From Thermoplasmata archaeon (GTDB lineage: Archaea > Thermoplasmatota > Thermoplasmata > Lutacidiplasmatales > UBA184): a DNA stretch of 38,395 bases. The translations under genes were made by a program, and so were the position numbers. Shown here piece by piece: positions 1 through 26,356 of the stretch. The notes below the pieces were generated by a model. That model worked only from the letters and a program-made list of their open reading frames with translations. It was not told where the DNA came from and ran no database searches. The first letter of the stretch is position 1; every line of letters begins with the position of its first letter. Where the stretch lies: positions 1 through 38,395 of the forward strand of contig JASHQF010000020.1 of the NCBI GenBank assembly GCA_030037695.1, in the 5' to 3' direction.

Positions 1-127
1 AATATCGAGCGGGGGCGTACGCGGCGATTGCGTAACCCCCGACGAGGACACCGCTAAGCGTGCTCGGCCAGTGGAGCAGAATTCCTACCGCCTGCCGCTC
101 CCGCTCATCGGGGTCGACGGGCGACAA
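1..127 (-). CDS. 5' part of a nucleotidyltransferase (AbiEii-like toxin candidate); runs off the left window edge; absent from the ORF track
   Basis: TTG at 127 preceded by GGAGG. Translates MSPVDPDERERQAVGILLHWPSTLSGVLVGGYAIAAYAPARY, containing the hhhGGhAhxxYxxxR start motif of pol-beta-like nucleotidyltransferases. Overlaps the 3' end of the upstream gene. Confidence 0.7.
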   Translation of the reverse strand, partial: MSPVDPDERERQAVGILLHWPSTLSGVLVGGYAIAAYAPARY

Positions 128-683
128 GGTCCTCCGCGTTGGCGAAGATGCCTGGATGATCTCGGATCAACTTGACCGCGGCTTCCCGAGTTACGACCGG
201 CTCGCCGTGTAGAACCGTGACTCTCAATGAGTCCACCGGGAAGAGTTCCACCCGCGCGCCAATTCTCTTACGACCCGCCACTGAAATACCGAGCCGTCCG
301 AGGTAGCGCCGCCAAATCTTCAATCGGCTTCGAGGAACAGCAAGCGAGTAAACTCGGGCAAAGACCGACGGACTGACCCTGTATCGGCCCCCGGACCAGA
401 GCTCGACTGCCGTTTCACCCGTCCAAGCCTTTGGGCTGGGGCCCCTCAAGACCGCCTCCCTGACGCGGCGCCATTCAACAGCACGGAGATCCGGCCTCTC
501 GGAGGGACCGAGGCGACGGTATCTACCTCGGCCAACGCGCGCGAGTTGACCACGGTGCTTCAGCTCACTGAGAGTCTTTGCCGCGCGGGGATTGGCTAGA
601 CGTACACGAAAATCTCGTGTCGTGAACTCGCCTTCTCCGTAAAGGTGGTCGATAGCGTCGAGATAGGTGATGGGCATAGGCAC
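105..683 (-). CDS. winged-helix protein, AbiEi-like antitoxin candidate (type IV TA)
   Basis: N-terminal wHTH-like segment FTTRDF...KTLSELKHRGQLARVGRGRY (LxRhxRGxY wing). Lies directly upstream of and overlaps a nucleotidyltransferase. Start could be GTG 683 or ATG 677. Confidence 0.6.
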   Translation of the reverse strand: MPMPITYLDAIDHLYGEGEFTTRDFRVRLANPRAAKTLSELKHRGQLARVGRGRYRRLGPSERPDLRAVEWRRVREAVLRGPSPKAWTGETAVELWSGGRYRVSPSVFARVYSLAVPRSRLKIWRRYLGRLGISVAGRKRIGARVELFPVDSLRVTVLHGEPVVTREAAVKLIRDHPGIFANAEDLVARRPR

Positions 684-695
684 TAAACATCGGAA

Positions 696-711
696 GTAGT
701 ATTAATACAAC
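696..711 (-). promoter_or_regulatory. TATA box embedded in a palindrome; candidate autoregulatory operator
   Basis: GT-A-GTATTAATAC-A-AC, with a perfect 10-bp core palindrome at 699-708, about 16-25 nt upstream of the antitoxin candidate start. Confidence 0.45.
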
Positions 712-951
712 GCCTATACGCGGGGGAACGCCATCTCGCTCCACTCAACCGGTCCCCGGCTCCAATGTTAGAAGATACTCCCGAGCTCCGGCGCATGTGC
801 AACGGCTCTTGCAGCTACCTCAACCCGCATGGTGTCGGCATCGAGTTCGAGGTTAGCGAGTCTCCATCTGAGGGGTATACCCTAGGTCGTCAGTCCTGAG
901 CCGGGCACCCTCTGACAGAAGTTTAAGGCAGAGTCGTCGTTTGAACCACGG

Positions 952-1998
952 ATGCCGTTTTGCACGCATTGCGGAAGGCCACGGCCCAGCGACGCAGCCT
1001 TCTGCCCTTCTTGCGGTAGTCCAGTGCCTGGCGCAAAGCCCTCGGAGCCGCCACGCTCACACTCATCGTCGCTGTTTCCCGCCCCCGTTGCAAGGATAGG
1101 GAGTTTCGGAGCGTCCGCACGTCTGGGCGAGAAAATCGACATTGGCAGGGTCGTGAACTTGTTCCCCGGTGCCAGGTTCTCGCCGAACCCGAAGTTCTCC
1201 CCCGCGATGAACTCAGAACTCGTCTACGAGCTCCAGGATTCAGAGTCCCATCGCAAGATGCAGGTTAGGATCGAGAGGTCTGGCGTAGTCAGCGTGGCTG
1301 GAGGCCGGACCGTAGACGATGCGGTCCGAATTCTTTCCGGGGTCCGGGCGACTCTTCAACGAGAATTGGGACTGCCGGGCAGTTTCAAATTTCAGATTCG
1401 GTTTGGGGCCAACCGGGTGTTCTACGGCCGGGGAATCCGGATCGCGTCGGTCCCCAGCGTGATTCCTAAGTCAATCTACCTGAACCTGGAGCCGGCGCTG
1501 ACGGGAGGGGATCCTGAGGGGTTGAACCTCGCTCCGAGCGGAAAGTACAATCGAGGCGGATCTGTTCATCCCGTGATCTCCGTCGACGAAGCGGTCCGGG
1601 TAACTCTCGAGGTCCTTACGGGGAGGCCCAGCGAGGGGTTGGTCCCTCAGAGCTTCTTAGGGTTCCTTGGCCTCCTCGACGTCCCCGACTGGTGCCGGCA
1701 TCTCGCCGTGTGCCGGCTACCGAGATCCTCGCTCGCCGCCATAATGCCCCGGAGCTTGGACAAAAGTGGTAACGTTGCCTTGACGGGATCAGTTCAGTTC
1801 ACCACGCCCGGCAGCATCGCGCAGCTTTCCCTTGCCAGGTCCGAGCTCCTTGAGCTGCTTGATCAGCACAACCTGTTCGGCACGCTCACGCCTTTCGATC
1901 AGATCCCTGCGGACGTGCAGCACGATGCCTCGGCCCTCGACTACAATGCAACTAATGAAGAATATTGGCCCGAGCAGAGCTGGACGACCGTGCCGTAG
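952..1998 (+). CDS. zinc-ribbon protein fused to a divergent TATA-binding-protein (TBP)-like domain
   Basis: N-terminal CTHCG...CPSCG zinc ribbon and Pro/Ser linker. Then ASARLGEKIDIGRVVNLFPGARF..LVYELQD..VRIERSGVVSVAGGRTVDDAVRILSGVRATL, which follows the TBP repeat pattern. Later SGK/TGS + helix motifs and an acidic tail. TATA-like TTTAAG near 922. Confidence 0.6.
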   Translation: MPFCTHCGRPRPSDAAFCPSCGSPVPGAKPSEPPRSHSSSLFPAPVARIGSFGASARLGEKIDIGRVVNLFPGARFSPNPKFSPAMNSELVYELQDSESHRKMQVRIERSGVVSVAGGRTVDDAVRILSGVRATLQRELGLPGSFKFQIRFGANRVFYGRGIRIASVPSVIPKSIYLNLEPALTGGDPEGLNLAPSGKYNRGGSVHPVISVDEAVRVTLEVLTGRPSEGLVPQSFLGFLGLLDVPDWCRHLAVCRLPRSSLAAIMPRSLDKSGNVALTGSVQFTTPGSIAQLSLARSELLELLDQHNLFGTLTPFDQIPADVQHDASALDYNATNEEYWPEQSWTTVP

Positions 1999-2094
1999 TC
2001 GCTCCACAGGGATTCGGGGTCGGTTGAGATGGTTATCAAGCGCGATTCCAAATGTCATCGCCGCCTGATCGGCCCCTTAGCTCCTCCAGCCCAA

Positions 2095-2832
2095 CTAAAC
2101 CACCCGGAATAAGTCGATTTTCGCGCGGACTCGCGCCATGAGATCCTCTACGTCGAGCGTCAGCCCGTACCGCTGGAAGTACCGGGACAGGGCACGCGCA
2201 CCCGCCGCTGCGGCCGTGAGCGCTTGATTGAGGCGAACCCAAGCAGGGGTCCCTAGTCGATCGATCCGGACTCCGGCAGCAAGATCGATGACCCACGGTT
2301 GACCGTCGTGTACTAGAATGTTGAAGGGACTCAAGTCGGAATGGACGATTCCTGCCTCGGCGAGGGCCTCGACAGCCGCCACCGTTTCCTGAAGAAACGC
2401 TTCGGGATCGCCAAGGCGGGCATGCTGAAGCATGGGCGCAGCCCCGGCGACGGTCCCTAGATACTGCATCGAGAACATATTTTCCACTCGACGTCCGGGT
2501 TGGGGAACCCGAGCTCCCCCTTGCCAGGCGTAGCTTAGGAGGTCATGCTCAATCAGCGCCCGCTGACCCATGGTCTCGAGTTTGATCGGCCGACCACCCC
2601 GGTGAGCGGTTCGATAGAGGCGGTACGCCTTTACAACGATCAGACGATGGTCGTCTCTGCAGAGATAGACATCCGCCTCCTTGCCGGAGCCGAGACGTTG
2701 GCCGACCTCGGTGGCCAGGCCACACTCCAGGATCGCGTCCGCTACCTCACTGTGGGTGGGCTCGGCGAAGCCGATCTGCCCGGTCCGCACCTTCCAGTGC
2801 ACGCTCTTGTCGAGGTACTCTTCGTTGGGCAT
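2095..2832 (-). CDS. RIO1-family serine/threonine kinase/ATPase
   Basis: Motifs LGSGKEADVY, VVKAYR, HSDLSPFNIL and VIDL. Confidence 0.9.
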   Translation of the reverse strand: MPNEEYLDKSVHWKVRTGQIGFAEPTHSEVADAILECGLATEVGQRLGSGKEADVYLCRDDHRLIVVKAYRLYRTAHRGGRPIKLETMGQRALIEHDLLSYAWQGGARVPQPGRRVENMFSMQYLGTVAGAAPMLQHARLGDPEAFLQETVAAVEALAEAGIVHSDLSPFNILVHDGQPWVIDLAAGVRIDRLGTPAWVRLNQALTAAAAGARALSRYFQRYGLTLDVEDLMARVRAKIDLFRVV

Positions 2833-3183
2833 CGGTTGACCCGGCCCAGGCTCGCAGACTCACGAGATTGGAATGCGGCGGCCTAGCCACGCGAGACCGA
2901 AAGAGGTCAGTCGGCCCACGGGGCGCCGGCATCCACATCGATTGCCATGATTCCCGTGAACCTCCTAGCCGTTGGCCGAATAGGAGACCCGCGAGGCCGT
3001 ATCTAAGGGCTTCGTCGACTCGGTAAGGGGATGACCGGTTCTGATGTTGCAGGTCCAGATCACGACGAGTCGCCTCTCTTTGCTCCTCGAGCGAGTAACT
3101 GTAGGCGAGTAACTGCCGCGATGGTGTCGACCTCGGACGCCTTCTCAAACCTCTAACCCTCTGACTCCTCGGGCGTTCCGGCT

Positions 3184-3543
3184 ATGCCGGTCGAGCGGAT
3201 TGCCAACGTAGACGAGATCCGAGCTGCGCGGATTCGACCGGACGCTGTCTACACGGAGGTCCTTCGACGCGAGTCGATGAGCGTCGGCATCTACGTCATC
3301 CCGGCTGGGGTTCCTGACGAGCAGGCCCCCCACAACGAGGACGAGGTCTATCTGGTCGTCAAGGGACGGGGAAGGTTTCGGCGGGGACCATCATCCACTC
3401 TTGTCGCTACCGGAGACCTGCTCTACGTTCGGGCACGCGATCCGCACCGTTTCGAAGAGGTCACCGAGGAGCTCGTGCTCGCGGTGTTCTTCGCCCCGCC
3501 CGAGGGGACCGCGGCCCCGAATAGAGCGCAAATTCAGCCTTAG
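3184..3543 (+). CDS. cupin domain protein
   Basis: Cupin motifs PHNEDEVYLVVKGRG and GDLLYVRARDPHRF. Confidence 0.88.
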   Translation: MPVERIANVDEIRAARIRPDAVYTEVLRRESMSVGIYVIPAGVPDEQAPHNEDEVYLVVKGRGRFRRGPSSTLVATGDLLYVRARDPHRFEEVTEELVLAVFFAPPEGTAAPNRAQIQP

Positions 3544-3869
3544 CCGAGGGAGTCCACATGGATCCGTTCAGCCACATCCTGCTTGCTTACCTTCTCGGGT
3601 TCGGGCTGGTCGGGGCGCACGGACACTCCAGTATGTTGTTGCGTCCGCCTTTGCGGGCGCTCTCCCCGACGCCGAAGTCGTGATCAATCCCTTTTCGAAA
3701 CGGTTCTCGCTAGTACGAAACCGGAGCATCTCCCACTCGATCCTTGGTGTACCGGCCATTGCACCCGGCTGTACCTGAGTCATGGAAGTCAGGGGCTGGA
3801 GCTTTCATTCACGCGCATCCGACCGTCTATATCCGTCGATGGGCGTGGTAAGTCGACTCGAGGTGAGCA

Positions 3870-4667
3870 ACGGCGCGACTACCTCCAATCCTCCAGAGCT
3901 ACCTTGAGTTCTGTGAGATTCGACGAAGCTTCAAGGACTCCGGGAGGCTCGAGCTCGATGCAGATTTTGTCTTCCCGACGACCTTACTTCCGCTCGCGGT
4001 ACTCATCTATCAAACGAATGCGGAGCTCCGCGTCTCGAATGCGGCGGTGAGAGGATACGTCAAGTGGATCTCGACTGCGGACAGCCCCCCTCCCGGAGGG
4101 ACATCGCTCCCCATCGTTCGACTTCCTCGGGACTTCGGAGAGTATCATGGAGTGATTCGCCGGCTCACGGACCTATCACAGACCACTCAACTCTTCTCTG
4201 AAAACCGAGACGCCTACCGATACCTTCTCTCTGAGCTGATCGACAACGTTTACGAGCACGCTCGTTCGAGGCGCTCATACGTCATGGCCCAGTACTACCC
4301 GAAGAAGGGCATGATCGAGGCGAGTTTCGTGGACGATGGCGTCACGATCCCGCGGAGCTTGGGTGAGGGAACCGGCGCTGAGTATGCCCCAGGCAAAGCG
4401 CATGAGGCCATTCTCGACGCCCTCCACGGGAAGTCGGCCAAGGAGGGTGAAGGTCGCGGGTTCGGGCTACAGTCGTCTGTGCGGCTGGTCAACGCTCTTG
4501 GCGGACAGGTGCTGGTAGTCTCTGGCAGCGGAGCCGTAGTTGCCGTGAGGAAGGGAGAAGTTCTGGCCTACTCCCTGAATCCGCAACTTGAGCTCGACGG
4601 CACTCTTGTGAGCCTGCGGCTTTCGGACACGCAGAAGAGAATAAATCTCTTCGACGAGGTTGAGTAA
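3870..4667 (+). CDS. GHKL/HATPase_c ATP-binding protein (anti-sigma-kinase-like); probable ACG start
   Basis: N box ELIDNVYEHA, G1 DDGVTIP, G2 GRGFGL. The frame stays open upstream of GTG 4047 back to TGA 3864 and encodes protein-like sequence (LQSYLEFCEIRR..FVFPTTLLPL). SD GAGGTGA at 3860-3866 precedes ACG 3870. Confidence 0.8.
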   Translation, partial: TARLPPILQSYLEFCEIRRSFKDSGRLELDADFVFPTTLLPLAVLIYQTNAELRVSNAAVRGYVKWISTADSPPPGGTSLPIVRLPRDFGEYHGVIRRLTDLSQTTQLFSENRDAYRYLLSELIDNVYEHARSRRSYVMAQYYPKKGMIEASFVDDGVTIPRSLGEGTGAEYAPGKAHEAILDALHGKSAKEGEGRGFGLQSSVRLVNALGGQVLVVSGSGAVVAVRKGEVLAYSLNPQLELDGTLVSLRLSDTQKRINLFDEVE

Positions 4668-4685
4668 GGCGAGGTGGGAGTTCCA

Positions 4686-5024
4686 ATGGCACTTGTCGTG
4701 ACCGTGCCGCGTCTAGAGATTCAGAAGGACGTCGGCAGCCTCCTCATGTTCAGGAGCGCGGTGACTCCCTTCTTCCGAAAGATCGCTCGATTTCGTTCTC
4801 ACCAGGTCGTGGTGGACTTCTCGAAGGTGGATTTCATGTCAAGATCCTTTGCTGATGAGTACCTTGCAGCAAAATCCACGTCCAAGAAACTCGTGACCGA
4901 AGAGCATGTTAGCCCTGAGGTCCGAAGGATGTTCGATCTCGTTTCCCGCCAACTTCTCGAGAAACAATCAAAGTTGATGAGAAGGCGGACTCCAATTCGG
5001 CAAACCCAGGTTGTGTCACTGTAA
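4686..5024 (+). CDS. STAS-like (DUF4325-type) protein
   Basis: VVVDFSKVDFMSRSFADE motif. SD GAGGTG at 4671-4676 before ATG 4686. Follows the GHKL ATPase directly. Confidence 0.8.
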   Translation: MALVVTVPRLEIQKDVGSLLMFRSAVTPFFRKIARFRSHQVVVDFSKVDFMSRSFADEYLAAKSTSKKLVTEEHVSPEVRRMFDLVSRQLLEKQSKLMRRRTPIRQTQVVSL

Positions 5025-5295
5025 CGGAAGACGCCAACGAACTGCAAGCGGCGTTGCGTGTTCGAAGTAGCGCGCGTTTCGAGGGAGGGTTGGTGCCCTC
5101 CGGCCGACCCCCGACCGTCTTCACGACTGGGAATGCGCGCTACTCTAGACCCGTAGAGTGCGTTGCACCCACTCCTCGTAGGGAGACATCATAGATCCTT
5201 CTCCCGCGTCTTCACGAGCTCATCATGTGCTCGGACTCGCAAGGAAAGAACCACGCAAGGGAGCCGTGCTCACCCGAGTAGGGTACGACAGTGGA

Positions 5296-6729
5296 TCAGC
5301 GAAAAATCGGCCGCCCTCGAGCCCACAGGACGAGTCCGACGATACCCGTGACTCCAACTCCGAGGACGATCCAAGGTAGCATGACGAATCCCCCGGGGCC
5401 TAGAGAAGTACATCCGCCTCCGAATCCTAACGAACTCGGTACGGACCCATTGATGACAGATACGTTGGAGGATCCGTCGTTGGCGACGAAGAGACTGCCC
5501 GCTCCGTACGCTGGTGCGAACGGCGCAACTCCGACATGAATTGTGGCCACGATCGAGTCATTGGACCCGTTGATAACGGAAACATTGCAGGACCCTGAGT
5601 TGGACGTATAGAGGTCCCCGTCGAGGGGATCTACGACGGGCGACGTGGGAAGAACGCCCACTCGGATCTCCTTGTCCAAACTGTACGTACCAGGCGACAC
5701 CGCGAAGACCAACGAACCCCCCCAATTGCAGCCATAACTACCGAGTCCGCCTTGACAGTAGGATACTCCTACGGGCACGAAGAGCTCCTTGGCGGCCTGA
5801 TCGAATACCGGTTGACCCGGTCGAAACGTCGCCGCCGACCCGGTCGCTCCGTACAGCGTCACGACCTTAACGACAGTGTCTGTTGCCCCCGAAATCACCG
5901 CCATCTGGGTATCGCCTGTCCCGGAGAGACCCACGACGTAGAGGTTGCCGTTGTCCGTATCGTACGAGACCCCGAGAGGCGCGAAGCCGACGGCCAACTG
6001 GGCCACGAGCGATTCGCTCAATCCCGAAAGCACCGCAACGCTTGCGTTATCGACGGCTAACACAAAGATATCTCCGGTCGCGGGATCGTAGGTAGGGTCC
6101 GTGACGTTTTCCTTCAGGTCGATCAGTTTGACGAGCGAGTCGTTCGACCCGTTAATCACTCCAATGTCCTGTCCCGGGGAAGGAAGGAATTGGTCGAACG
6201 AGAGGTACAGGTTGCCGTTTCCGGCATCGTAGACCGGAGTATCTGGATTATCGGTGAAGGTGATGTTGGCCAAGAGTTTCTCGGTGGTGCTCGACACGAC
6301 GGTAACCCGGGGCGGCGCACCGACCACAGCCTCCTCAGGAACGAAAAGGTTCCCGTTCGAAGTATCGACCGCCGGCTCAAGGGGATCCTGCCCTATGGAT
6401 ATCGTCGTAACAACTGAGTCGTTGAGTGGCGATATGACGCTAAGGCCCGAGTCGCTCACATAGACGTGCCCGTCCACCGAGTCGTACACCGCGGGCTGGG
6501 GGCCATTCCCCACGGGGATGCTTGGTAGAGGCGATGGGGAACCGGCCACGATAGCGCCCTCGCGAGGCGTAGAGGGCACTTGCGACCCTCGTGGGACCAT
6601 TTGCACGGAAACCCCGCCCCCGCCAACTGCCGGTTCAAACCCCTCGTCGATTCCCCCAACCAGCGCTAAAGCCGCTGCTGCGATCGCCAAGGTTGCCAGC
6701 GCGAGTGGCAAGAATCGCTGGGTTCGCAA
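5296..6729 (-). CDS. secreted, membrane-anchored YVTN/YncE-type beta-propeller surface protein
   Basis: Probable TTG start at 6729 gives the signal peptide MRTQRFLPLALATLAIAAAALAL. About 7-8 repeats of the type IxVGxxPxxxxYDxxxGxLYV..VSVINGSNDSIVATI. C-terminal TM helix followed by basic residues. Confidence 0.85.
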   Translation of the reverse strand: MRTQRFLPLALATLAIAAAALALVGGIDEGFEPAVGGGGVSVQMVPRGSQVPSTPREGAIVAGSPSPLPSIPVGNGPQPAVYDSVDGHVYVSDSGLSVISPLNDSVVTTISIGQDPLEPAVDTSNGNLFVPEEAVVGAPPRVTVVSSTTEKLLANITFTDNPDTPVYDAGNGNLYLSFDQFLPSPGQDIGVINGSNDSLVKLIDLKENVTDPTYDPATGDIFVLAVDNASVAVLSGLSESLVAQLAVGFAPLGVSYDTDNGNLYVVGLSGTGDTQMAVISGATDTVVKVVTLYGATGSAATFRPGQPVFDQAAKELFVPVGVSYCQGGLGSYGCNWGGSLVFAVSPGTYSLDKEIRVGVLPTSPVVDPLDGDLYTSNSGSCNVSVINGSNDSIVATIHVGVAPFAPAYGAGSLFVANDGSSNVSVINGSVPSSLGFGGGCTSLGPGGFVMLPWIVLGVGVTGIVGLVLWARGRPIFR

Positions 6730-7182
6730 GATCGCCGTTCGAACCGAAGGCGAATTGACGAAATAAGGCTTGTCGAATTGGGGTCGATGGCGCCCCCATC
6801 TTGGAAGAGTGGGGCCGATCGGATTGCAGTATTGGGCTCGAACAATGGATGTGATCGCAGAGGATGCTCGCACGGCGTCTGGCATCCCGAGGCTCGGGCC
6901 GATTCCATCCTACGGCCGAGACTCGGGGCTCGCGCCCAAGGGCAAATACGCTCTCCCTGGCCCCACAAAGCTCGACTGACGCACCGAAGGGCACCATTTC
7001 TCCCTCGGAAGGCGCGCCACTCTAAACTCGCAAGCGGCTTTTCACCCCCGGATGCGCCTCCGAGGTGGACCCGTTCGCGCGTGCGTGGCCCCACTGCGGT
7101 TGCACGCCCGGGCCGATACCTCAGATCATCCTTCGGGAGGCGAACCGGAGCGACAGGTCCGAACTTGTGTCGTGGCTGGATC

Positions 7183-9093
7183 CTAGCGAACCAGTCCGGC
7201 GGCAGCTCTCAACGCCGGGTACCGGGGATCCGCCCGGACCGCAGAGAACAGCGGCAGAACGGTCACCCAGTACATCGCGTTGAAGGGCAGCTTCAGGCTC
7301 TTCTCCATCCACGCGAAGAACTGGTCAGCGTCATGGAGAGCACCGTAGGCCCAGGCGAAGTCCAGCGGCGACACGTAGTTCTTCCGGGCCGTCTCGTGCA
7401 TCGCTTCGATGGCCCGGCGAGCCCCCTCCTGCTGACCCAGCGCGGCGCGGGCGATCGCATCGTACGCGTGACCCGCGTATCCGAGCTCGGGCGAACGCGG
7501 GAGCTCGAGCAGCTCGAGCGCTTCCGCCGTCCGGGAGCTTTGCGCCAGGACGGCGAGCCGGTACAGGTTCAAGGTCTCGGGTCGGTGGCCCTGCTGAAGC
7601 GCGGCGTCCCAGTCCGCCAGCGCATCGGAGAGCCGGTCCTCCGACCAGTGGAGCACCCCGCGATGCTCCAGCATACGCGGGGAGATGGGATCGATCTCAC
7701 GCCAGAGCCCGAGCTGAGCGGCGGCCTCGGGCTCCCGCACCTCCTGCCGGAGCAGCATGAAGTACCAATGTCGAGCCTGGGCGAGACCGGGGTCGAGCTC
7801 GAGGGCGCGATGGTACTCGGCCTCGGCCTCGACCCACCGCTTCTCGAAGGTGTGGAGGATCCCGAGGGAGGCGTGCGCTTCCGCGAGCGAGCTATCGAGC
7901 TCGAGCGCCTTCCGTGTGGCTTGCAAGGCGAGCGGGTACACGCTATCGGGCGGCGCGCTCCGGTTGTCGATCAGGATCGTGTAGCAGTCGGCAATGCCAG
8001 AGTACGCGCGGGCGAACGCCGGGTCGAGGCGGAGGGCCTCCTCGAAGAGCCGACGGGCGGCCTCGATCGACTCGGTCGTCCGTCGGTTCCATAGGGTCCG
8101 GGCCAGGAGGTAGCGTTGGTACGCTTCGACGTTCGAGGTCGGGGGGCGAGGCGCGGCACTCCCGGACGGCAGGACGAGACGCAGCGCGTTCGCCACGCGT
8201 TCGGCGATCTCGGATTGGATCTGGAAGATGTCGAGCACGCCCCGGTCGAACGTCTCGGACCAATGGTGCTCGTCGGTGGCGGGGTCGAGGAGCTGCACGG
8301 TGATCCGGAGCCGGTCCCCGGATTTCCGGACGCTGCCCTCGAGCACCGCATCCACCTCCAGTTCCGCCCCGATCTCGGCCACCGACTTCGTGGTCGACTT
8401 GTACCGGGCGGTGGAGGTCCGCGCCACGACGCGCAGCCCCTGGATCCGGGAGGTGACCGCGATGATCTCCTCGGTAAGCCCGTCGGAGAGGTACTCGTCC
8501 TTGGGATCCGGGCTGATGTTGGTCAGGGGGAGGACGGCGATCCTAGGCACGGAGGGAGCTCGGGACCGTGGCTCACCGGTGGCCCAAGGCAGGACCACCC
8601 GATAGATCGGTATCGGCTCCGGAATGCCCTTGAGGCTCTTCGGGCCAAGCGGCTCGAGGCGGTACGGCACCTTGTGCCGAACCTGATCGAAGACCTGGGC
8701 GGACAGGCAGACGCCCCCCGACTCTGCGAACGGCTCGATCCGGGAGGCAATGTTCACGGCATCGCCGAGGATGTCGCCGCCCCGGTCCTCCACATCGCCG
8801 AGGTGGATCCCTGCCCTCAGCCGCAGCGGGTGGGCGCCGGGCCTCGAGTTCCGTTCGTAGAGCGACCTTTGCAGAGCGACCGCACATTCCACCGCGTCTC
8901 GGGCGTTGGGAAATTCGAGCAGGAGCCCATCCCCGATCGACTTGATCTGCCGGCCCTGGTGGGCTCGAAGGATCGGCTCAAGGAGGGCCCCCTGCTCGTC
9001 CAGCAGGCGCAGGGCTCCTGGCTCGTCCTGGTGGGAGTCAGACGTGAATCCGGCGAGGTCGGTGAACATGATGGCGGCGAGTCGGCGGGCCAT
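7183..9093 (-). CDS. class III adenylate cyclase - TolB-like - TPR protein (copy 1)
   Basis: Cyclase: RRLAAIMFTDLAGFT, IKSIGDG, GDILGDAVNIASRIE. TolB-like: IAVLPLTNISPDPKDEYLSDGLTEEII..LEGSVRKSGDRLRITVQL. TPRs and terminal RADPR. Start may be 9093 or 9132. Confidence 0.92.
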   Translation of the reverse strand: MARRLAAIMFTDLAGFTSDSHQDEPGALRLLDEQGALLEPILRAHQGRQIKSIGDGLLLEFPNARDAVECAVALQRSLYERNSRPGAHPLRLRAGIHLGDVEDRGGDILGDAVNIASRIEPFAESGGVCLSAQVFDQVRHKVPYRLEPLGPKSLKGIPEPIPIYRVVLPWATGEPRSRAPSVPRIAVLPLTNISPDPKDEYLSDGLTEEIIAVTSRIQGLRVVARTSTARYKSTTKSVAEIGAELEVDAVLEGSVRKSGDRLRITVQLLDPATDEHHWSETFDRGVLDIFQIQSEIAERVANALRLVLPSGSAAPRPPTSNVEAYQRYLLARTLWNRRTTESIEAARRLFEEALRLDPAFARAYSGIADCYTILIDNRSAPPDSVYPLALQATRKALELDSSLAEAHASLGILHTFEKRWVEAEAEYHRALELDPGLAQARHWYFMLLRQEVREPEAAAQLGLWREIDPISPRMLEHRGVLHWSEDRLSDALADWDAALQQGHRPETLNLYRLAVLAQSSRTAEALELLELPRSPELGYAGHAYDAIARAALGQQEGARRAIEAMHETARKNYVSPLDFAWAYGALHDADQFFAWMEKSLKLPFNAMYWVTVLPLFSAVRADPRYPALRAAAGLVR

Positions 9094-9423
9094 CGGTGCC
9101 GGGTCCTTAGTCGGGGGGCCTTTTGCCCTCATCGCCCCTAGGTCAAGTCCGGTCCCTTGCTTCACGCTCGCTCGAACGAAGGTCCCCCCTCGCGCTCCCG
9201 TCCAAGCGAGGCGCAGCCTCCCTCCGCGCGACCGAGCGTTCGTTGCGCCTACGTTGTGTCCACATCGGACACGGGGTTCGCACTTGCGACCCTCCGCGTG
9301 CAGGTGGACAGCCTTGGCCCCCCCTCTCGTTCTCCCAGGCGGTGAGCCTTCAATCCGGCGAGAGCACGTGCAGGTCCGGCCCCTTAGGGAAGGCGCCGCA
9401 CGCCCCGGCCGAAGCTTGCTTGC

Positions 9424-11836: not shown

Positions 11837-13813
11837 CTACGAGGGACCTTCCGGCGCCGACGGCTCGCGAAGCTGGCGCTGGCGTCGAAGAATGTCCTGG
11901 ACTCGGGGGTCCTGCCGGGCGGTCGCGTACAGGGGCGAGTAGAGGAGCTCGAGCAGCGGTAGCACCCCGTGCCGGAGGGCGTACTCCATCGAAGCGATGA
12001 ACGCGTCGACCTCGCCGAGCGCGTAGTGCAGGAAGCCGATGAAGAACACGACCATCTCGCCCTTCCGCTGCCGATCCTCGAGCTGGGCGATCGACCGGCG
12101 AGCGATCGCCGGGTCCCCCTGGCGAACGGCGAGGATGCCGCGGTACAGGAGCGTCCACGGGCTGTCCGGCCGTATCCGCTCCATCTCGCGGATCGAGGCC
12201 TCGGCCTGGCCGAGGTCGTTCTTCCCGAGGTAGTACTCGCTCATGTGGGCGTTCGTCCGGAACTGGACGCGGGGCTTCGACTCCTTCCAGAAGGCGAGGG
12301 CGTCGGCCTCCCGCCCGGCGTACACGAGCGCGCGGCCGTAGAACGAGAGGACGTTGGCGTCGTCCGGGTTCAGGTGGCGGGCGGCGTCCAGGAGGCGGAT
12401 CGCATCGCCGAGATCCCCGTCCCCCGCCGCCAGCTGCGCCAGCCAGCGGTACGGGTCGGCCAGGCTCGGGTTCAGCTCCATGGCCCGGCGGGCCTCGCGT
12501 TCGCATTCCACGAACCGGTCGGATCCGAGGCACAACGCCGCGAGGGTCGAGTGCGCCTCGGCGATGCTCTCGTTGATCTCGAGCGCCCGGTGGAGCTCCC
12601 GGTCGGCCCGGTCCTCCGCCTCCCGGAAGTGGATCGCCCCTTCCGTGGCGAGCCAGAGGAGGGTCTCCGCGAGGCTCACCCGGGCCCGGGCGAAGTTCGG
12701 GTCCCGCGCGACGGAGCTCTCGAACAGGGAGAGCGCGGTGCGGATCCCCTCGAGCGAGCCCTTCTCCCCGAACAGCTGGCGCCCGTGCAGAAACAGCGAG
12801 TACGCCTCCATGTCCGAGGTCTCCGGCGGGGCGGAGGGGGCCGGCGGGGGCGCCCCGGAGGGGGCCCCCCGAACGTGCGTCGTGACGGCCCGGGCGACGT
12901 GGCCGGCGATGTCGTCCTGGATCGCGAAGATGTCGTCGAGCGGCCGGTCGTAGCGCATCGACCAGATGCCGGCCTCCGACCGCACGTCCACCAGCTGCAC
13001 GGCGATCCGCACCCGGTTGCCCGACTTGCGGACGCTCCCCTCGAGCGCGACGCCGACGTCCAGCTCCTCGCCGACCTCACGGATCGACTTCGCCGAGCCC
13101 TTGTAGCGCTGGACCGACGTCCGGGAGATCACTCGGACCTGGGGGACCTGCGCCGTGCGGGAGATCAGTTCGTCCGTCAGGCCGTCCGCGAAGAAGTGGT
13201 CGGCCGCCTCGGTGCTCAGGTTGGCGAGCGGCAGGACCGCCAGTCGTAGCGGCTGGGGGCCCTCGTTCGCGGGCGAGGGGGCGGGGGTCCGCGGCGCCCC
13301 GACGGCGACGCGGTAGATCTCGACCGGCTCCTCGACGTTCTTGAGGCGCCGGACGCCGACCGTCTCGAACACCATCGGGAGCTTGTTCCGCACCTGCTGG
13401 TAGACGGTCGCCGAGAGGCTGATCCCGCCCGGGTCGGCCAGCGGCTCGATGCGGGAGGCGACGTTCACGGCGTCGCCGACCACGTCGCCGCCCTCCTCCA
13501 CGACGTCCCCGGCGTGCAGCCCGATCCGAAGGAGGAGCTGGTCCCGCGGCCCGACCGACCCGTTCCGACGTGCGTTCGCGCGTTGGATCTCCACCGCGCA
13601 CCGGACCGATTCCACCGCGCTCGCGAACTCGACCAGGAAGCCGTCCCCGAGCGTCTTCACCTCGTGGCCCCCGAAGGCGGCGAAGATCGGCCGCACGAGC
13701 GCCTGATGCTCTCGCCGTAGGCGCAGCGCCGCCTCCTCGTCCTCCTGCCCCAGCTTCGTGTAGCCGACGATGTCGGTGAACATGATCGCGGCGAGCCGAC
13801 GCGACGAGGCCAT
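11837..13813 (-). CDS. class III adenylate cyclase - TolB-like - TPR protein (copy 2)
   Basis: RRLAAIMFTDIVGYT, VKTLGDG, GDVVGDAVNVASRIE, LAVLPLANLS..FADGLTDELI, TPRs, terminal RQDPR. ATG 13813 lies about 25 nt downstream of TTAAT. Confidence 0.92.
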   Translation of the reverse strand: MASSRRLAAIMFTDIVGYTKLGQEDEEAALRLRREHQALVRPIFAAFGGHEVKTLGDGFLVEFASAVESVRCAVEIQRANARRNGSVGPRDQLLLRIGLHAGDVVEEGGDVVGDAVNVASRIEPLADPGGISLSATVYQQVRNKLPMVFETVGVRRLKNVEEPVEIYRVAVGAPRTPAPSPANEGPQPLRLAVLPLANLSTEAADHFFADGLTDELISRTAQVPQVRVISRTSVQRYKGSAKSIREVGEELDVGVALEGSVRKSGNRVRIAVQLVDVRSEAGIWSMRYDRPLDDIFAIQDDIAGHVARAVTTHVRGAPSGAPPPAPSAPPETSDMEAYSLFLHGRQLFGEKGSLEGIRTALSLFESSVARDPNFARARVSLAETLLWLATEGAIHFREAEDRADRELHRALEINESIAEAHSTLAALCLGSDRFVECEREARRAMELNPSLADPYRWLAQLAAGDGDLGDAIRLLDAARHLNPDDANVLSFYGRALVYAGREADALAFWKESKPRVQFRTNAHMSEYYLGKNDLGQAEASIREMERIRPDSPWTLLYRGILAVRQGDPAIARRSIAQLEDRQRKGEMVVFFIGFLHYALGEVDAFIASMEYALRHGVLPLLELLYSPLYATARQDPRVQDILRRQRQLREPSAPEGPS

Positions 13814-13950
13814 CGCCCCCGGAGTTGCCGGCCCTAGATTAACGGCCCGCCCCGGAACGCGACGCACCTAGCGTGAGGGCCCCTCGGCACGGCCCAGCCA
13901 CGCGCCGGTCCGCGTGGGGCCGGGGGTCGATCCGGCGGGCGCGGGCCAGC

Positions 13951-15003: not shown

Positions 15004-16356
15004 TCAGCCCTGCGTGACCGAGTAGGTCTCCCAGCTGCCCTCGAGCCCCTTCAGGGGTTGCGACGGCCGTTCGCTGAAGCGGACCCCGGAGCCCACCGAG
15101 AGGTCCCGGACCGTCCGGGAGGTCGCGACCTCGCCCGCGCCTGCGGTGTCGCAGATCCGGGAGGCGATGTGGACCGCGATGCCGGTGATGTCCCCCGGGC
15201 CGACGATGCATTCTCCGGTATGGACGCCCGCCCGCAGGGCGAGGCCCACGCGCCGGGCCTGTTCGCTCAGGGCCTGGGCGCACCGGACGCCCCGCGTCGG
15301 TCCGTCGAACGTGGCCAGCAGCCCGTCGCCCGTGGTCTTCACGATCTCCCCACGGTACCGGGTCACCTCGGTCCGCGCTTCCGAGAGGAAGCGGTCCATC
15401 AGGCTCTTCCACGCCGCGTCCCCGACCGAGGCGGCCCGGCGCGTCGACTCCACCACGTCCACGAAGACGACCGTCTTCAGCACCCGGTCGCTCTCGTCCC
15501 CCGCGCGGGGCAGGTGCTCGAGGAACCCCCGCTGGGCCGCGAGCGACTCGCGTCGGGCCTCGGCGTTGGCCCAGAAGAAGTGGTCGTTCCCCGGGATCGA
15601 GACGAGCTTCGCCCCGGCGACGTGGGCGGCGACGTAATCGGACGCCTCCGCGCGAACGGACCGGTCGCCCGGACACTTCAGCACCAGGGTGGGGACATGG
15701 ACGACGGGCAGGGTGGCACGGACATCGATGTCCAAGTTCAGCCGGGCCAGCACCGCGGAGGCGGAGGGGGAGGAACCGAACCGGATCACGCGGCCGTACC
15801 AGCGTTTGAACTCCGCATCGTCGGTGCGACTCGGCGCCTGGAGCGCCACGAGCCGGTCGATGTACGCAGGAGTTCCCCACTCCTCCTCCGACTGCCGGAT
15901 CGACAGCTCGACCTCCTCCCGTGTCGGCGCGTAGGGGAAATCCGGTGCCCACGAGCCGCGCACGGTGGGCTCGATCAGTATGAGACCGAGGGTGCGCTCG
16001 GGGTACGTCGCCGCGAAGAGCAACGCCATCGCCGCCGTATCGGTGGCGCCGAAGATCACCGCGCGCTCGCAGTGGGCCGAATCCATGACCGCCCGCACGT
16101 CGTCCATCCGGTCCTCGAGCGTGGGGGTCCCGACGACCCGGTCGGAGAGCCCGACGCCACGCTTGTCCCAGAGGATCACCCGGGCGGACTTCGCGAGTTC
16201 CGCGAAGTACTGGGCGGTGGAGGGGTTCTCCCAGACCAGCTCGAGGTGGGAGATCGCCGTCCGTCCGTAGACCAGGTCGACCGGACCTGAACCGAACACG
16301 CTGTAGGCGATCCGAAGGTTGCCGCTCCGGGCGTAACGGACCTCAGGAGGTTCCAT
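15004..16356 (-). CDS. alpha/beta-hydrolase - class III adenylate cyclase fusion (LipJ/Rv1900c-like)
   Basis: Hydrolase: VRYARSGNLRIAY, WDKRGVGLSDR. Cyclase: VFVDVVEST, KTTGDG, GVHTGEC, GIAVHIASRI. ATG 16356 lies about 30 nt downstream of a CTATAT box. Confidence 0.9.
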   Translation of the reverse strand: MEPPEVRYARSGNLRIAYSVFGSGPVDLVYGRTAISHLELVWENPSTAQYFAELAKSARVILWDKRGVGLSDRVVGTPTLEDRMDDVRAVMDSAHCERAVIFGATDTAAMALLFAATYPERTLGLILIEPTVRGSWAPDFPYAPTREEVELSIRQSEEEWGTPAYIDRLVALQAPSRTDDAEFKRWYGRVIRFGSSPSASAVLARLNLDIDVRATLPVVHVPTLVLKCPGDRSVRAEASDYVAAHVAGAKLVSIPGNDHFFWANAEARRESLAAQRGFLEHLPRAGDESDRVLKTVVFVDVVESTRRAASVGDAAWKSLMDRFLSEARTEVTRYRGEIVKTTGDGLLATFDGPTRGVRCAQALSEQARRVGLALRAGVHTGECIVGPGDITGIAVHIASRICDTAGAGEVATSRTVRDLSVGSGVRFSERPSQPLKGLEGSWETYSVTQG

Positions 16357-16558
16357 CGGGCGCGACACCCCAGCGAAACGGTCGGCGATATAGCGGTTCC
16401 AACGGCTGGCCGCGCGCGGGAGCCTCCGGGACGTCGGCGGCACAGAGGGGGAGGAACCCCTGCCTCGGGGGGCCCTCCTGTCGCTCGGGCCCCCTCCCGC
16501 CGGACGGCCCCGCACGTCGATCGCGCTGGGAGGGAGGTAACGCCATGTACCGATTCCG

Positions 16559-17542
16559 ATGGACGTCGGCGCTGCGATGCGGGCCGCCGTCGTCCGTGCG
16601 TTCGGCGCCCCGCCATCGTGGAGCGACTTCCCCGAGCCCGCCCCCGAACCGGGCGAACGGGTGGTAGCGGTCTCGGCCGCCGCGGTGAATCCCCTGGTGC
16701 TCACCCGGGCGTCCGGGGCGCACTACAGTGCGGGGACCCAACTCCCGTTCGTGGCTGGGGTCGACGGGGTCGGCAGGTCCGCGGAGGGCGATCGAGTCTA
16801 CTTCAGGGTCGGTCGGCCCCCCTATGGGTCGCTGGCCGAACGCGTGCCGGTCCCGGCGAGCCGAACGCTCCCGGTGCCCGCGGGGGTGTCGGACGTCACC
16901 GCCGCGGCGTCCGCGATCCCGGGGGTCTCGAGCTGGATCCCGCTGACGCGGCTCGCTCCCGTTCGCACGGGCGAGGCCGTGCTCATCAACGGGGCGACCG
17001 GCTCGGCGGGGCGGATGGCCGTCCAGATCGCCCGCCACCTCGGGGTCGACTCGGTCATCGCGACGGGCCGGGACCCTGCGAAGCTCCACGAACTGAACTC
17101 GCTCGGGGCCTCGGAGGTCGTTCCGCTGGGGGAGCCGTGGGACGCCTTCCGGTCGCGCGTCCGGGAGCTCGTGCAGGAGGTAAGGGTCGGTGTGGTGATC
17201 GACTACCTCTGGGGTCCCTCGGCCGAGGCGATCCTCGCGGCGCTCGGCGGACCCGCGGCGCCCCGGGGAAGTGCGAGGGTCCGCTACGTCTCGGTAGGCG
17301 CGATCACCGCAGAGGCCGTCGCGCTCCCGTCGGCCGTGCTTCGGAGCTCCGGCGTCGAGATCCTAGGGAGCGGCATCGGGGCCTCTCCGGACGCTGAGAT
17401 CGTCGAAGGGACCCGTGAGTTCTTTGCCGCCCTGGAGCAGCGGAAGTTCCGGGTCGACGCCGAGGAGCAACCGATGCCGAGCGTCGAGCGTAACTGGGGC
17501 AGGACCGGCGGAGAGCGGCGGTTGGTGTTCACGCTCCCGTAG
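16559..17542 (+). CDS. MDR-family quinone oxidoreductase-like protein (zinc-binding ADH superfamily)
   Basis: AAAVNP, PFVAGVDGVG, VLINGATGSAG, VIDYLWG. Confidence 0.88.
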   Translation: MDVGAAMRAAVVRAFGAPPSWSDFPEPAPEPGERVVAVSAAAVNPLVLTRASGAHYSAGTQLPFVAGVDGVGRSAEGDRVYFRVGRPPYGSLAERVPVPASRTLPVPAGVSDVTAAASAIPGVSSWIPLTRLAPVRTGEAVLINGATGSAGRMAVQIARHLGVDSVIATGRDPAKLHELNSLGASEVVPLGEPWDAFRSRVRELVQEVRVGVVIDYLWGPSAEAILAALGGPAAPRGSARVRYVSVGAITAEAVALPSAVLRSSGVEILGSGIGASPDAEIVEGTREFFAALEQRKFRVDAEEQPMPSVERNWGRTGGERRLVFTLP

Positions 17543-17801
17543 GCGAGCCTTGGGCCGCCCCGACCGGGCCAGGGGGCGGGATCCGATTCCGGAGGGAGCC
17601 CCCTGGGATGGAAGTTTTCGGGCTCCATGGGCGAATCCTACAGCGAATTCGCAGGAGCTGGGGCGCGGGGGATTCTTGAGCCGCTACGGCGGAATCGCGT
17701 GGGCCCGGCCCGCGCTCTCTCTCCGCCCGGGGTGCGGCTGGTTTCGTTCCTCCCGCGAGCGCCTCCAGATGCGCTTAAGGAACCGGACGCATCGCAAGCC
17801 C

Positions 17802-26255: not shown

Positions 26256-26356
26256 AGCGGGGTGGGGTAGTCAGGAAAGCGCCGGCGCTCCCGGCGCCCT
26301 GAAATCCCGACGGGCTCATAACCCGTAGATCCATGGTTCAAATCCATGCCCCGCTA
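26256..26356 (+). tRNA. initiator tRNA-Met (CAT) with an intron in the D-loop; CCA not encoded
   Basis: Acceptor stem AGCGGGG/CCCCGCT (A1-U72). Anticodon arm ACGGG-CTCATAA-CCCGT with three G-C pairs. T arm CATGG-TTCAAAT-CCATG. Removing 26278-26303 gives a canonical 75-nt tRNA. Confidence 0.95.
26278..26303 (+). other. 26-nt tRNA intron at position 20a/21 with a relaxed bulge-helix-bulge motif
   Basis: CAGG-AAA-GCGCCGG-CGCTC-CCGGCGC-CCTG-AAA: 4-bp central helix CAGG/CCTG flanked by two AAA bulges, plus a 7-bp intron stem. Confidence 0.88.

Follow-up and report, generated by a model that had tools for sequence, protein, structure and literature searches.

Has an archaeal protein that joins a zinc ribbon to a highly diverged saddle of the TATA-binding protein (TBP) kept a place in basal transcription, or has it been recruited to another role? 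This question is raised by an open reading frame (ORF) at positions 952..1998 of a 38,395-nt stretch of DNA from a Thermoplasmata archaeon (GenBank JASHQF010000020.1, our contig C114), referred to here in its full length as the window. The original prediction, made from the sequence alone, had proposed a non-canonical basal factor or a TBP mimic. On balance, and by a small measure only, we favour an accessory, horizontally acquired and fast-evolving TBP paralogue which keeps the saddle, has lost the residues that contact DNA and transcription factor B (TFB), and has a regulatory or conflict-related role. The predicted fold, the homology to the two-lobe TBP, the loss of functional residues and the accessory status were each supported directly. 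Residues are numbered as in the 348-aa protein, for which the analyses predict the following layout (pLDDT, predicted local distance difference test; S, strand; H, helix):

922..927, + strand: TATA-like hexamer TTTAAG, 25-30 nt upstream of the ATG, read directly
952..1998, + strand: whole ORF, 348 aa plus stop
958..1026, + strand: zinc ribbon, CxxC...CxxC, residues 3-25 (Zn_Ribbon_1, E 1.7e-7; pLDDT 79-87 over residues 1-30)
1027..1086, + strand: Pro/Ser-rich linker, residues 26-45 (pLDDT 58 for residues 31-40, no secondary structure)
1087..1368, + strand: TBP lobe 1, residues 46-139 (profile, hhalign, DSSP, tree)
1390..1494, + strand: first part of TBP lobe 2, residues 147-181, with S1', H1' and S2' (alignment posterior, match to lobe 1, structure)
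1495..1698, + strand: insertion at the C-terminal stirrup, residues 182-249 (alignment gap, DSSP, model alignment, conservation)
1699..1866, + strand: second part of TBP lobe 2, residues 250-305 (hhalign, shuffle control, match in the relative P0011, structure)
1867..1995, + strand: conserved C-terminal tail, residues 306-348 (family alignment A1)

Homology to TBP and the predicted saddle

When searched alone, the protein stayed below threshold. Its sole Pfam match was Zn_Ribbon_1, and the TBP family PF00352 neither matched it at E ≤ 1 nor retrieved it in a search of its own genome. NCBIfam TBP models aligned to residues 48-140 with E-values of 0.008-0.013 (15-16 bits, cut-offs 255-330), TBPs of the PDB gave E 0.23-0.42, and BLASTP against the genome's own TBP gave E 0.003. 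A phmmer scan of 1.84 billion representative sequences (E ≤ 1e-3) returned 65 matches, one being the query itself. Seventeen of them cover the protein body at 24-35% identity (P0002-P0016, P0022 and P0037), and 47 are restricted to residues 1-88 with the zinc ribbon; one of the latter, P0025, might extend into lobe 1. Word-indexed homologue searches recovered only the query, or the query and P0037, and the ESM Atlas contained no entry for either protein.

The query and its 17 relatives were combined in alignment A1 (18 sequences). The A1 profile matched the TBP of M. jannaschii (2z8u) with E 1.4e-31, and the best 35 PDB matches were all TBPs or TBP fusions (E 1.4e-31 to 4.1e-10). Individually, 12 of the 18 members matched PF00352 at E ≤ 0.1 (best E 5.1e-18), with 58.5 bits for P0006 and 32.7 bits for P0012 at a cut-off of 22.9, and a Zn_Ribbon_1-type ribbon was matched in nine. 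It is thus the family profile, and not the sub-threshold query, that makes TBP homology decisive; judged by sequence similarity, the protein is a member of the TBP (PF00352) homologous superfamily. The zinc ribbon and the TBP repeat read at residues ~47-140 in the original prediction were both recovered, the latter at about residues 46-139.

That prediction had also counted a second repeat and a further half-repeat. In the alignment of the A1 profile with PDB TBPs, both TBP repeats map to one profile region, and the same alignment passes through the linker between the repeats and on to S1 of the second one. A canonical reference profile of 32 TBPs, cut from genomes of the same class, was collinear with the family over profile positions 3-182 and body positions 4-244 (local alignment, probability 99.5, E 3.5e-22). 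High posteriors were obtained for lobe 1, the linker, S1' and S5'-H2'; a gap of ~60 residues separates S2' from S3', and a second one, of 10 residues, lies in the S4'-S5' hairpin. Compared by hhalign with the class TBPs, lobe 1 reached a probability of 99.3 (E 1e-20) and the C-terminal piece alone a probability of 79 (E 1.6e-5). The TBP profile scored 32.6 against the C-module (residues 147-348) vs 12.3 ± 2.6, with a maximum of 19.8, in 100 column shuffles (z ~8). In P0011, which is devoid of lobe 1, residues 324-353 match PF00352 positions 55-84 with E 0.0077. The S1'-H1'-S2' piece aligned in register with lobe 1 of the family itself (z 6.4); its comparison with canonical TBP by sequence was not significant (z 0.5-2.1, E 0.19).

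The full-length AlphaFold2 model built on A1 had a mean pLDDT of 84.4 and a predicted template modelling score (pTM) of 0.81. All 44 Foldseek matches in the PDB at E ≤ 1e-3 were TBPs or TBP fusions, with archaeal proteins first. The best, 1mp9_B, gave E 4.9e-9 and a template modelling score (TM) of 0.76 when normalised to TBP length, with 274 columns aligned against 189 residues, and the match following the TBP group had a probability of 0.13. VIA-align against 48,161 representatives superposed 188 of the 189 residues of 1mp9_B on model residues 34-312 (Z 14.1, root-mean-square deviation (rmsd) 3.2 Å); four more TBPs followed with Z 11.0-13.1, and then a single-lobe match with Z 8.5. The C-module folded alone with alignment A4 gave a pLDDT of 84.9 and a pTM of 0.82. 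Its best VIA-align match was again 1mp9_B, with 88 residues of one lobe spread over 166 model residues (Z 7.9, rmsd 2.1 Å); the other TBPs of the top five had Z 7.2, 7.2, 5.6 and 4.1, and the best non-TBP Z 3.8. Foldseek with the C-module alone returned no match at E ≤ 1e-3, so that the TBP lobe was recovered by VIA-align alone.

The N-terminal domains of RNase HIII and DNA glycosylases appeared neither among the 50 VIA-align matches of either search nor among the Foldseek matches at E ≤ 1e-3, an absence that does not amount to an exclusion, and Pfam and NCBIfam scans of the query contained no RNase H or glycosylase domain. The fold check by AlphaFold and Foldseek thus led to TBP itself, and not only to other TBP-like folds. 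None of the three outcomes named as refuting the original prediction came about. According to the models, the full two-lobe TBP saddle is kept, with two tandem repeats forming a ten-stranded, pseudo-symmetric structure.

Lobe 1 of the model contains S1 (46-57), H1 (64-70), S3 (89-96), S4 (101-108), S5 (112-118) and H2 (121-139). Since the 88 residues of a TBP lobe align across 166 model residues, lobe 2 is composed of residues 147-181 together with 250-305. The first part comprises S1' (147-157), H1' (164-170) and S2' (174-181) and carries the conserved motif GRGI.I..LP.R..DS.Y, and the second part comprises S3' (250-255), S4' (262-267), S5' (280-283) and H2' (289-305), with the S4'-S5' hairpin extended by ~10 aa. 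The TBP-like second segment of the original prediction therefore stands, whereas the count of two repeats plus a half does not: the start of the second repeat and the half-repeat form one lobe 2. In the predicted architecture a conserved insertion interrupts this lobe where the C-terminal stirrup would be. The inserted stretch of ~65 residues reads GKYNRGG...SVDEAVRVTLEVL... and was modelled as a β-hairpin (193-201/204-208) followed by helices 211-223 and 235-241. A partial repeat duplication was considered as its origin but is not claimed, because the similarity of its helix to the start of H2 extends over 13-14 columns only (z 2.5-5.3). The tail consists of a G-P-L-T-P...IP linker and an acidic/aromatic motif, D..DYFA.D..VW in the family.

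Four of the phmmer matches (P0002, P0003, P0004 and P0009) align from residue 1 of the query onwards. The public gene call P0001 (279 aa) begins at query residue 70; its start is probably mis-called, because it would open inside a folded domain, namely lobe 1. A hexamer of the TTAAG type lies equally far upstream of the ribbon-opening ATG in the copies L006 and L008 of two sister genomes, and its placement at all three copies supports the full-length start. TTTAAG is probably the TATA box of a leaderless mRNA, a putative role which we take from general knowledge of archaeal promoters. The homologue without lobe 1 at L008 (5872-6609, + strand) carries a second candidate, an ATG 12 nt past the listed GTG (MTTCPRCGG...), which is the likelier start given the position of the upstream ATTAAG hexamer.

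Contact residues and the conservation of the family

Fourteen functional positions, 12 for DNA contact and two for TFB docking, were mapped from the genome's own TBP via the profile alignment. As DNA contacts we took the S1 Asn and Val, two Phe per lobe, and the S5 Val and Thr. In the 32 class TBPs, 13 of the 14 positions are conserved in 30-32 sequences and one in 25. None is conserved in the family, where the commonest residue occurs in at most seven of 17 members; at the 12 DNA-contact positions, conserved in 25-32 of the class TBPs, it occurs in at most six of 17. The query has S51, G53, S83, E108, S114, A116, F151, A153, V244, P266, Q282 and T284 at these sites. The DNA-contacting Asn and the intercalating Phe are thus substituted, as had been read from the sequence, and the suggested change or loss of TATA specificity is borne out insofar as the canonical TATA-contact residues are gone.

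Two acidic residues in loop L3 of lobe 2 dock TFB/TFIIB, according to the signature positions given by Ravarani et al. (2020, PMC7221094), and we equate C.L3.2 and C.L3.4 with the EPE of YEPEQF. The pair is Glu in 32 of 32 class TBPs and maps to R225 and S227 of the query; the first column holds K or R in 10 of 17 family members and the second is variable. That these Glu are not conserved, and that the insertion occupies the region, argues against TFB binding through the canonical interface. A predicted complex of the body (residues 42-348, A1) with a TFB core (residues 120-327 of the L043 ORF, the best-scoring TFB of the genome) scored 0.00 against a mark of 0.32, run without controls, and weighs neither way on TFB binding. 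As judged from the alignments, the canonical DNA- and TFB-contact residues of TBP are lost.

A protein without these residues would not act as a basal factor, and the host's ordinary TBP presumably fills that role. This canonical TBP (182 aa) is encoded on contig C87, and a canonical TBP was present in 41 of 41 class genomes. The features of a basal TBP that were found missing are the DNA-contact residues, the TFB-docking pair and vertical inheritance as a universal core gene. Besides the one canonical TBP, three TFB paralogues were found in the host (contigs C112, C5 and C43; loci L043-L048), whose metagenome-assembled genome (MAG) is 78% complete.

The three TFBs keep alive the alternative of a working second TBP, which would recognise a divergent, non-TATA or relaxed promoter element and pair with one of them to serve a special set of genes. 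Haloarchaea offer a precedent, in that multiple TBP and TFB genes are described for them in PMC2121645, and a comparable division of gene sets has been proposed for these factors. The complete predicted saddle would suit such a protein, as would a basic lobe 1 and the aromatic residue that some members retain at the second Phe position of this lobe (Phe in three of 15, Tyr in one). We nevertheless consider it unlikely, since none of the 14 contact positions is conserved, the TFB-docking stirrup is replaced by the insertion, some members have no lobe 1 at all, and only three of ~43 genomes of the genus carry the gene.

Conservation in the family lies elsewhere. In lobe 2, G159-R160-G161, P168, S174 and Y176 are conserved in S1'-H1'; in the insertion, S210 is invariant and G197, N200 and G203 are near-invariant; in the extended hairpin, R267 and G279 are invariant and D270 and G273 near-invariant; in the tail, T313 is invariant, L308 near-invariant and P314 conserved. 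In total, alignment A1 contains six invariant and seven near-invariant columns outside the canonical sites. In the 14 members whose lobe 1 is complete, this lobe is net basic, with charges from +1 to +10 vs 0 for repeat 1 of the host TBP. The acidic tail noted previously was found again, with a net charge of -7 in query residues 310-348 and a negative charge in 13 of 15 members without a C-terminal fusion.

The loss of all canonical functional residues, together with very long branches in the phylogeny, would also be expected of a decaying TBP duplicate devoid of function. Against this speaks that the ORF is intact and similar in length in 17 diverged relatives, as do the conserved columns outside the canonical sites, the gain of ribbon, insertion and tail as new conserved modules, and a confidently folded model. 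We regard decay as very improbable.

Distribution and genomic context

Maximum-likelihood (ML) analysis of 14 family lobe-1 domains and both repeats of the 32 TBPs (94 columns; P0005 and P0011, having no lobe 1, were left aside) recovered the family as one clade (100/98) and repeat 2 as one clade (100/100), with the family joining the repeat-1 side. This is the phylogeny with canonical TBPs that had been proposed as a check. The terminal branches of the family measure 0.58-2.57 changes per column vs a tree-wide median of 0.11, which indicates fast evolution and makes the exact attachment unsafe.

The host MAG comprises 1.58 Mb, and matching DNA was present in five DNA sequencing runs of two studies, four from peat and one, with a small share, from soil; no RNA run was listed, which bears neither way on expression. 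The gene is single-copy in the host. It was found in one of 36 other genomes of the same genus (G006), in none of 24 further relatives and in none of 400 other genomes of the phylum, five of them of the same genus. A third carrier, G473 with locus L008, apparently belongs to the same genus, because its relatives list repeats the survey of the host genus; overall, three of ~43 genomes of the genus carry the gene. The three versions have 348 aa, 318 aa (35% identity) and ~240 aa, the last with the ribbon joined directly to lobe 2. A related-locus search with the tighter alignment A3 added the genome locus L008 and the metagenome loci L009 and L010, the latter being the L008 locus. No relative was found in IMG/VR viral contigs, in 50,697 phage records or in 72,556 plasmid records. 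The automatic IMG names of P0008 and P0004 are 'TBP', which over-states their function.

P0006, P0010 and P0012 share a Cys-rich extension after the family tail (C-terminal 150 residues; PCYNC...VCPECGKCVICG...FYCK.H). No PDB relative of it was found for P0010, and the sole Pfam match was DUF5679, in P0010; the extension may be a further zinc-binding module.

The gene lies at the contig end, in a region of low GC content that contains the following neighbours, and four cyclase genes follow within 13 kb:

1-7000: low-GC island (GC 0.60 vs 0.72), left boundary cut by the contig end
105-683, - strand: AbiEi-like winged-helix protein (Pfam AbiEi_4, E 9e-6; PADLOC AbiEi, E 1.6e-5)
2095-2832, - strand: RIO-type kinase, divergent (RIO1, E 7e-17; well short of the cut-off for NCBIfam Rio1)
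4047-4667, + strand: HATPase_c protein, adjoining the STAS-like gene
4674-5024, + strand: STAS-like (DUF4325) protein, adjoining the HATPase_c gene
5296-6885, - strand: protein of 529 aa with 'D..NG.LYV' repeat units, anchored to the membrane at its C terminus (Pfam sub-threshold only), probably a surface β-propeller repeat protein
7183-9165, - strand: class-III adenylate/guanylate cyclase
11837-13867, - strand: class-III adenylate/guanylate cyclase
15004-16704, - strand: class-III adenylate/guanylate cyclase
17415-19760, + strand: class-III adenylate/guanylate cyclase

The GC content at third codon positions (GC3) is 0.71 in the gene and 0.61-0.73 in the island genes, and 0.74 and 0.67 in the sister copies. 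It is 0.94-0.97 in host core genes (ClpB, an MFS transporter and the host's own TBP, the last with 0.96). The gene is accessory and compositionally foreign, in agreement with the accessory island proposed at the outset. A survey of homologue neighbourhoods in three genomic contexts revealed no recurrent neighbour.

A cupin is also encoded among the neighbours. The HATPase/STAS-like pair matches phage families of unassigned role (phrog_3364, E 1.9e-25; phrog_20761, E 8e-9) and is possibly a two-gene module of mobile elements. The expected partner of the AbiEi-like gene would fall beyond the contig end. At L008, ClpB and PAN genes lie 2-6 kb upstream of the homologue; both are also present in the window at 32.5-37.3 kb. 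Elsewhere in the window (26256-26356, + strand), a tRNA with anticodon CAU was detected by Rfam (53.8 bits) and missed by ARAGORN; it has 33 nt where the D-loop model has 4, so that a non-canonical intron of ~29 nt seems to interrupt the D-arm.

Island context and rapid divergence keep alive a TBP mimic in genetic conflict. Such a protein, encoded by a mobile element or by the host, would titrate TFB, RNA polymerase (RNAP) or a TBP-binding regulator, or would block promoters. The low GC3, the nearby AbiEi-like gene and phage-related pair, the patchy distribution with three very different versions in one genus, and the long branches are all in line with it, and divergent TBP-like proteins are carried by giant viruses (BFVD matches; signature analysis in Ravarani et al. 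2020, PMC7221094). However, viral, phage and plasmid records contained no relative, no PADLOC-DB family matched the protein at E ≤ 0.01, the canonical TFB-docking residues are lost, and the 7-kb island showed neither an integrase nor any other gene for mobility. We consider a mimic distinctly unlikely. The same low credence applies to its most specific form, in which a mobile TBP mimic, re-armed with ribbon, insertion and tail, would allow a selfish element or a defence system to jam or redirect archaeal initiation via a new interface.

The cyclases bear on a further alternative, a signalling protein in which lobe 2, insertion and tail would form a pocket, e.g. for a cyclic nucleotide, and the TBP fold would serve as scaffold. 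Other helix-grip or TBP-fold ligand binders exist. P0006 is fused to an N-terminal class-III nucleotide cyclase (Guanylate_cyc, E 1e-13), four cyclase genes stand close together in the window, and the strongest conservation concerns Gly, Ser, Asn, Arg, Asp and Thr of lobe 2 and the insertion. These pocket-like residues and the dispensability of lobe 1 in four of 19 relatives keep a ligand sensor under consideration. The fusion occurs, however, in one of 18 members only, and no known ligand-binding family was matched in Pfam, NCBIfam, PDB profile or VIA-align searches. Moreover, the first window cyclase has a GC3 of 0.85 vs 0.61-0.73 in the island and so probably lies outside it. We therefore rate this alternative as improbable as well, placing it after the working second TBP and ahead of the mimic. 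TPR repeats are the fusion partner in three of the window cyclases, and an α/β hydrolase is so in the other; PycC, the cyclase model of Pycsar, is matched by the first of the four as well (E 4e-8).

Known TBP derivatives and possible roles

Archaeal TBP (PF00352; 1mp9, 2z8u, 1ais/1pcz) is homologous to the studied protein over both lobes, has the same two-lobe saddle and provided the best sequence and fold matches. It differs in having no ribbon, no ~65-aa insertion in place of the stirrup, no ~10-aa hairpin insertion and no conserved tail. It is also a core gene, whereas the studied gene is accessory and foreign-looking and its product stays below the Pfam threshold. The monopartite TBP-domain proteins of Thermococcales and the haloarchaeal TbpA, as characterised by Brindefalk et al. 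(2013, PMC3597702), are likewise non-canonical, of unassigned function and present beside a normal TBP. They are stand-alone single domains of ~82-136 aa, in contrast to a protein of 348 aa with ribbon, two lobes and insertion. Even the family members without lobe 1, P0005 and the L008 ORF, keep lobe 2 with the insertion and are not plain TBP domains. The studied protein thus falls outside the monopartite class, defined by a single TBP domain alone in <~150 aa, and the word 'zinc' does not occur in that article.

The TBP-like proteins of giant viruses resemble the family in being highly diverged and two-lobed, with a diverged TFIIB-docking signature, and in residing in mobile genomes. Unlike the family, they keep the nucleic-acid-binding signature positions, according to Ravarani et al. 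(2020, PMC7221094), and their BFVD models reach a TM of at most 0.59 when normalised to the target, vs 0.76 for cellular archaeal TBPs. TBP-fold lobes also serve as protein-binding platforms, as in the adaptin/COPG appendage and in archaeal adaptin-like and arCOG08177 proteins; Makarova et al. (2024, PMC11188069) describe such platforms in archaeal ESCRT neighbourhoods. These share with our proposal the use of a lobe for purposes other than DNA binding, and one archaeal example carries a Zn ribbon. They are single lobes related at the level of fold only (Z 7.2-7.6 to lobe 1), whereas the studied family is homologous in sequence and has two lobes. In a full-text literature search, neither a fusion of zinc ribbon and TBP nor a TBP carrying an insertion at the stirrup was found to have been described.

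Several observations weigh against an accessory TBP paralogue that keeps the saddle and has lost its interfaces. All structural claims concern predicted models from a shallow alignment of 18-19 rows, and it was from alignments, not from model coordinates, that the insertion was placed with respect to the concave face. Lobe 1 is absent from four of 19 aligned relatives (P0005, P0010, P0011 and the L008 ORF), so the family as a whole cannot share the function of a two-lobe saddle on nucleic acid. The invariant Gly, Ser, Asn, Arg, Asp and Thr of lobe 2, insertion and tail look more pocket-like than DNA-surface-like. The DNA-contact positions follow the structural literature on TBP in general, and the mapping of the TFB-docking Glu depends on the alignment, which is uncertain for these columns at the insertion boundary. 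Partial DNA contacts may persist in some members, given that three of the 15 aligned lobe-1 domains have Phe, and one has Tyr, at the second Phe site. Finally, no neighbour gene is common to the three genomic contexts.

With these points set against it, a regulatory or conflict-related paralogue is still the reading that we prefer. Such a protein would act without the bending of nucleic acid that is typical of TBP. Its ribbon and net-basic lobe 1 might sit on nucleic acid, and its most conserved surface, formed by lobe 2, insertion and tail, might bind a partner or a small ligand by a route other than the canonical site of TFB. The roles suggested in the original prediction, namely an alternative promoter-selectivity factor, a TFB/RNAP decoy or an antiviral mimic, found no direct support in the analyses.

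Few proteins of archaea and eukaryotes are as conserved as TBP. To our knowledge, natural variants that keep the saddle and abandon both the DNA and the TFB interface are very rare. The family suggests that TBP can take on a new role with both lobes in place. The two lobes can diverge at very different rates and one can be lost without the other, as the members devoid of lobe 1 illustrate, which bears on models for the origin of TBP from single domains, and TBP derivatives appear to circulate in the accessory DNA of uncultured Thermoplasmata. A new mode of binding DNA, TFB or RNAP would make the protein a natural tool with which archaeal initiation could be dissected; ligand binding would make it a new sensor on a transcription-factor fold; and a mobile mimic would be the first case of archaeal transcription-factor mimicry in genetic conflict.

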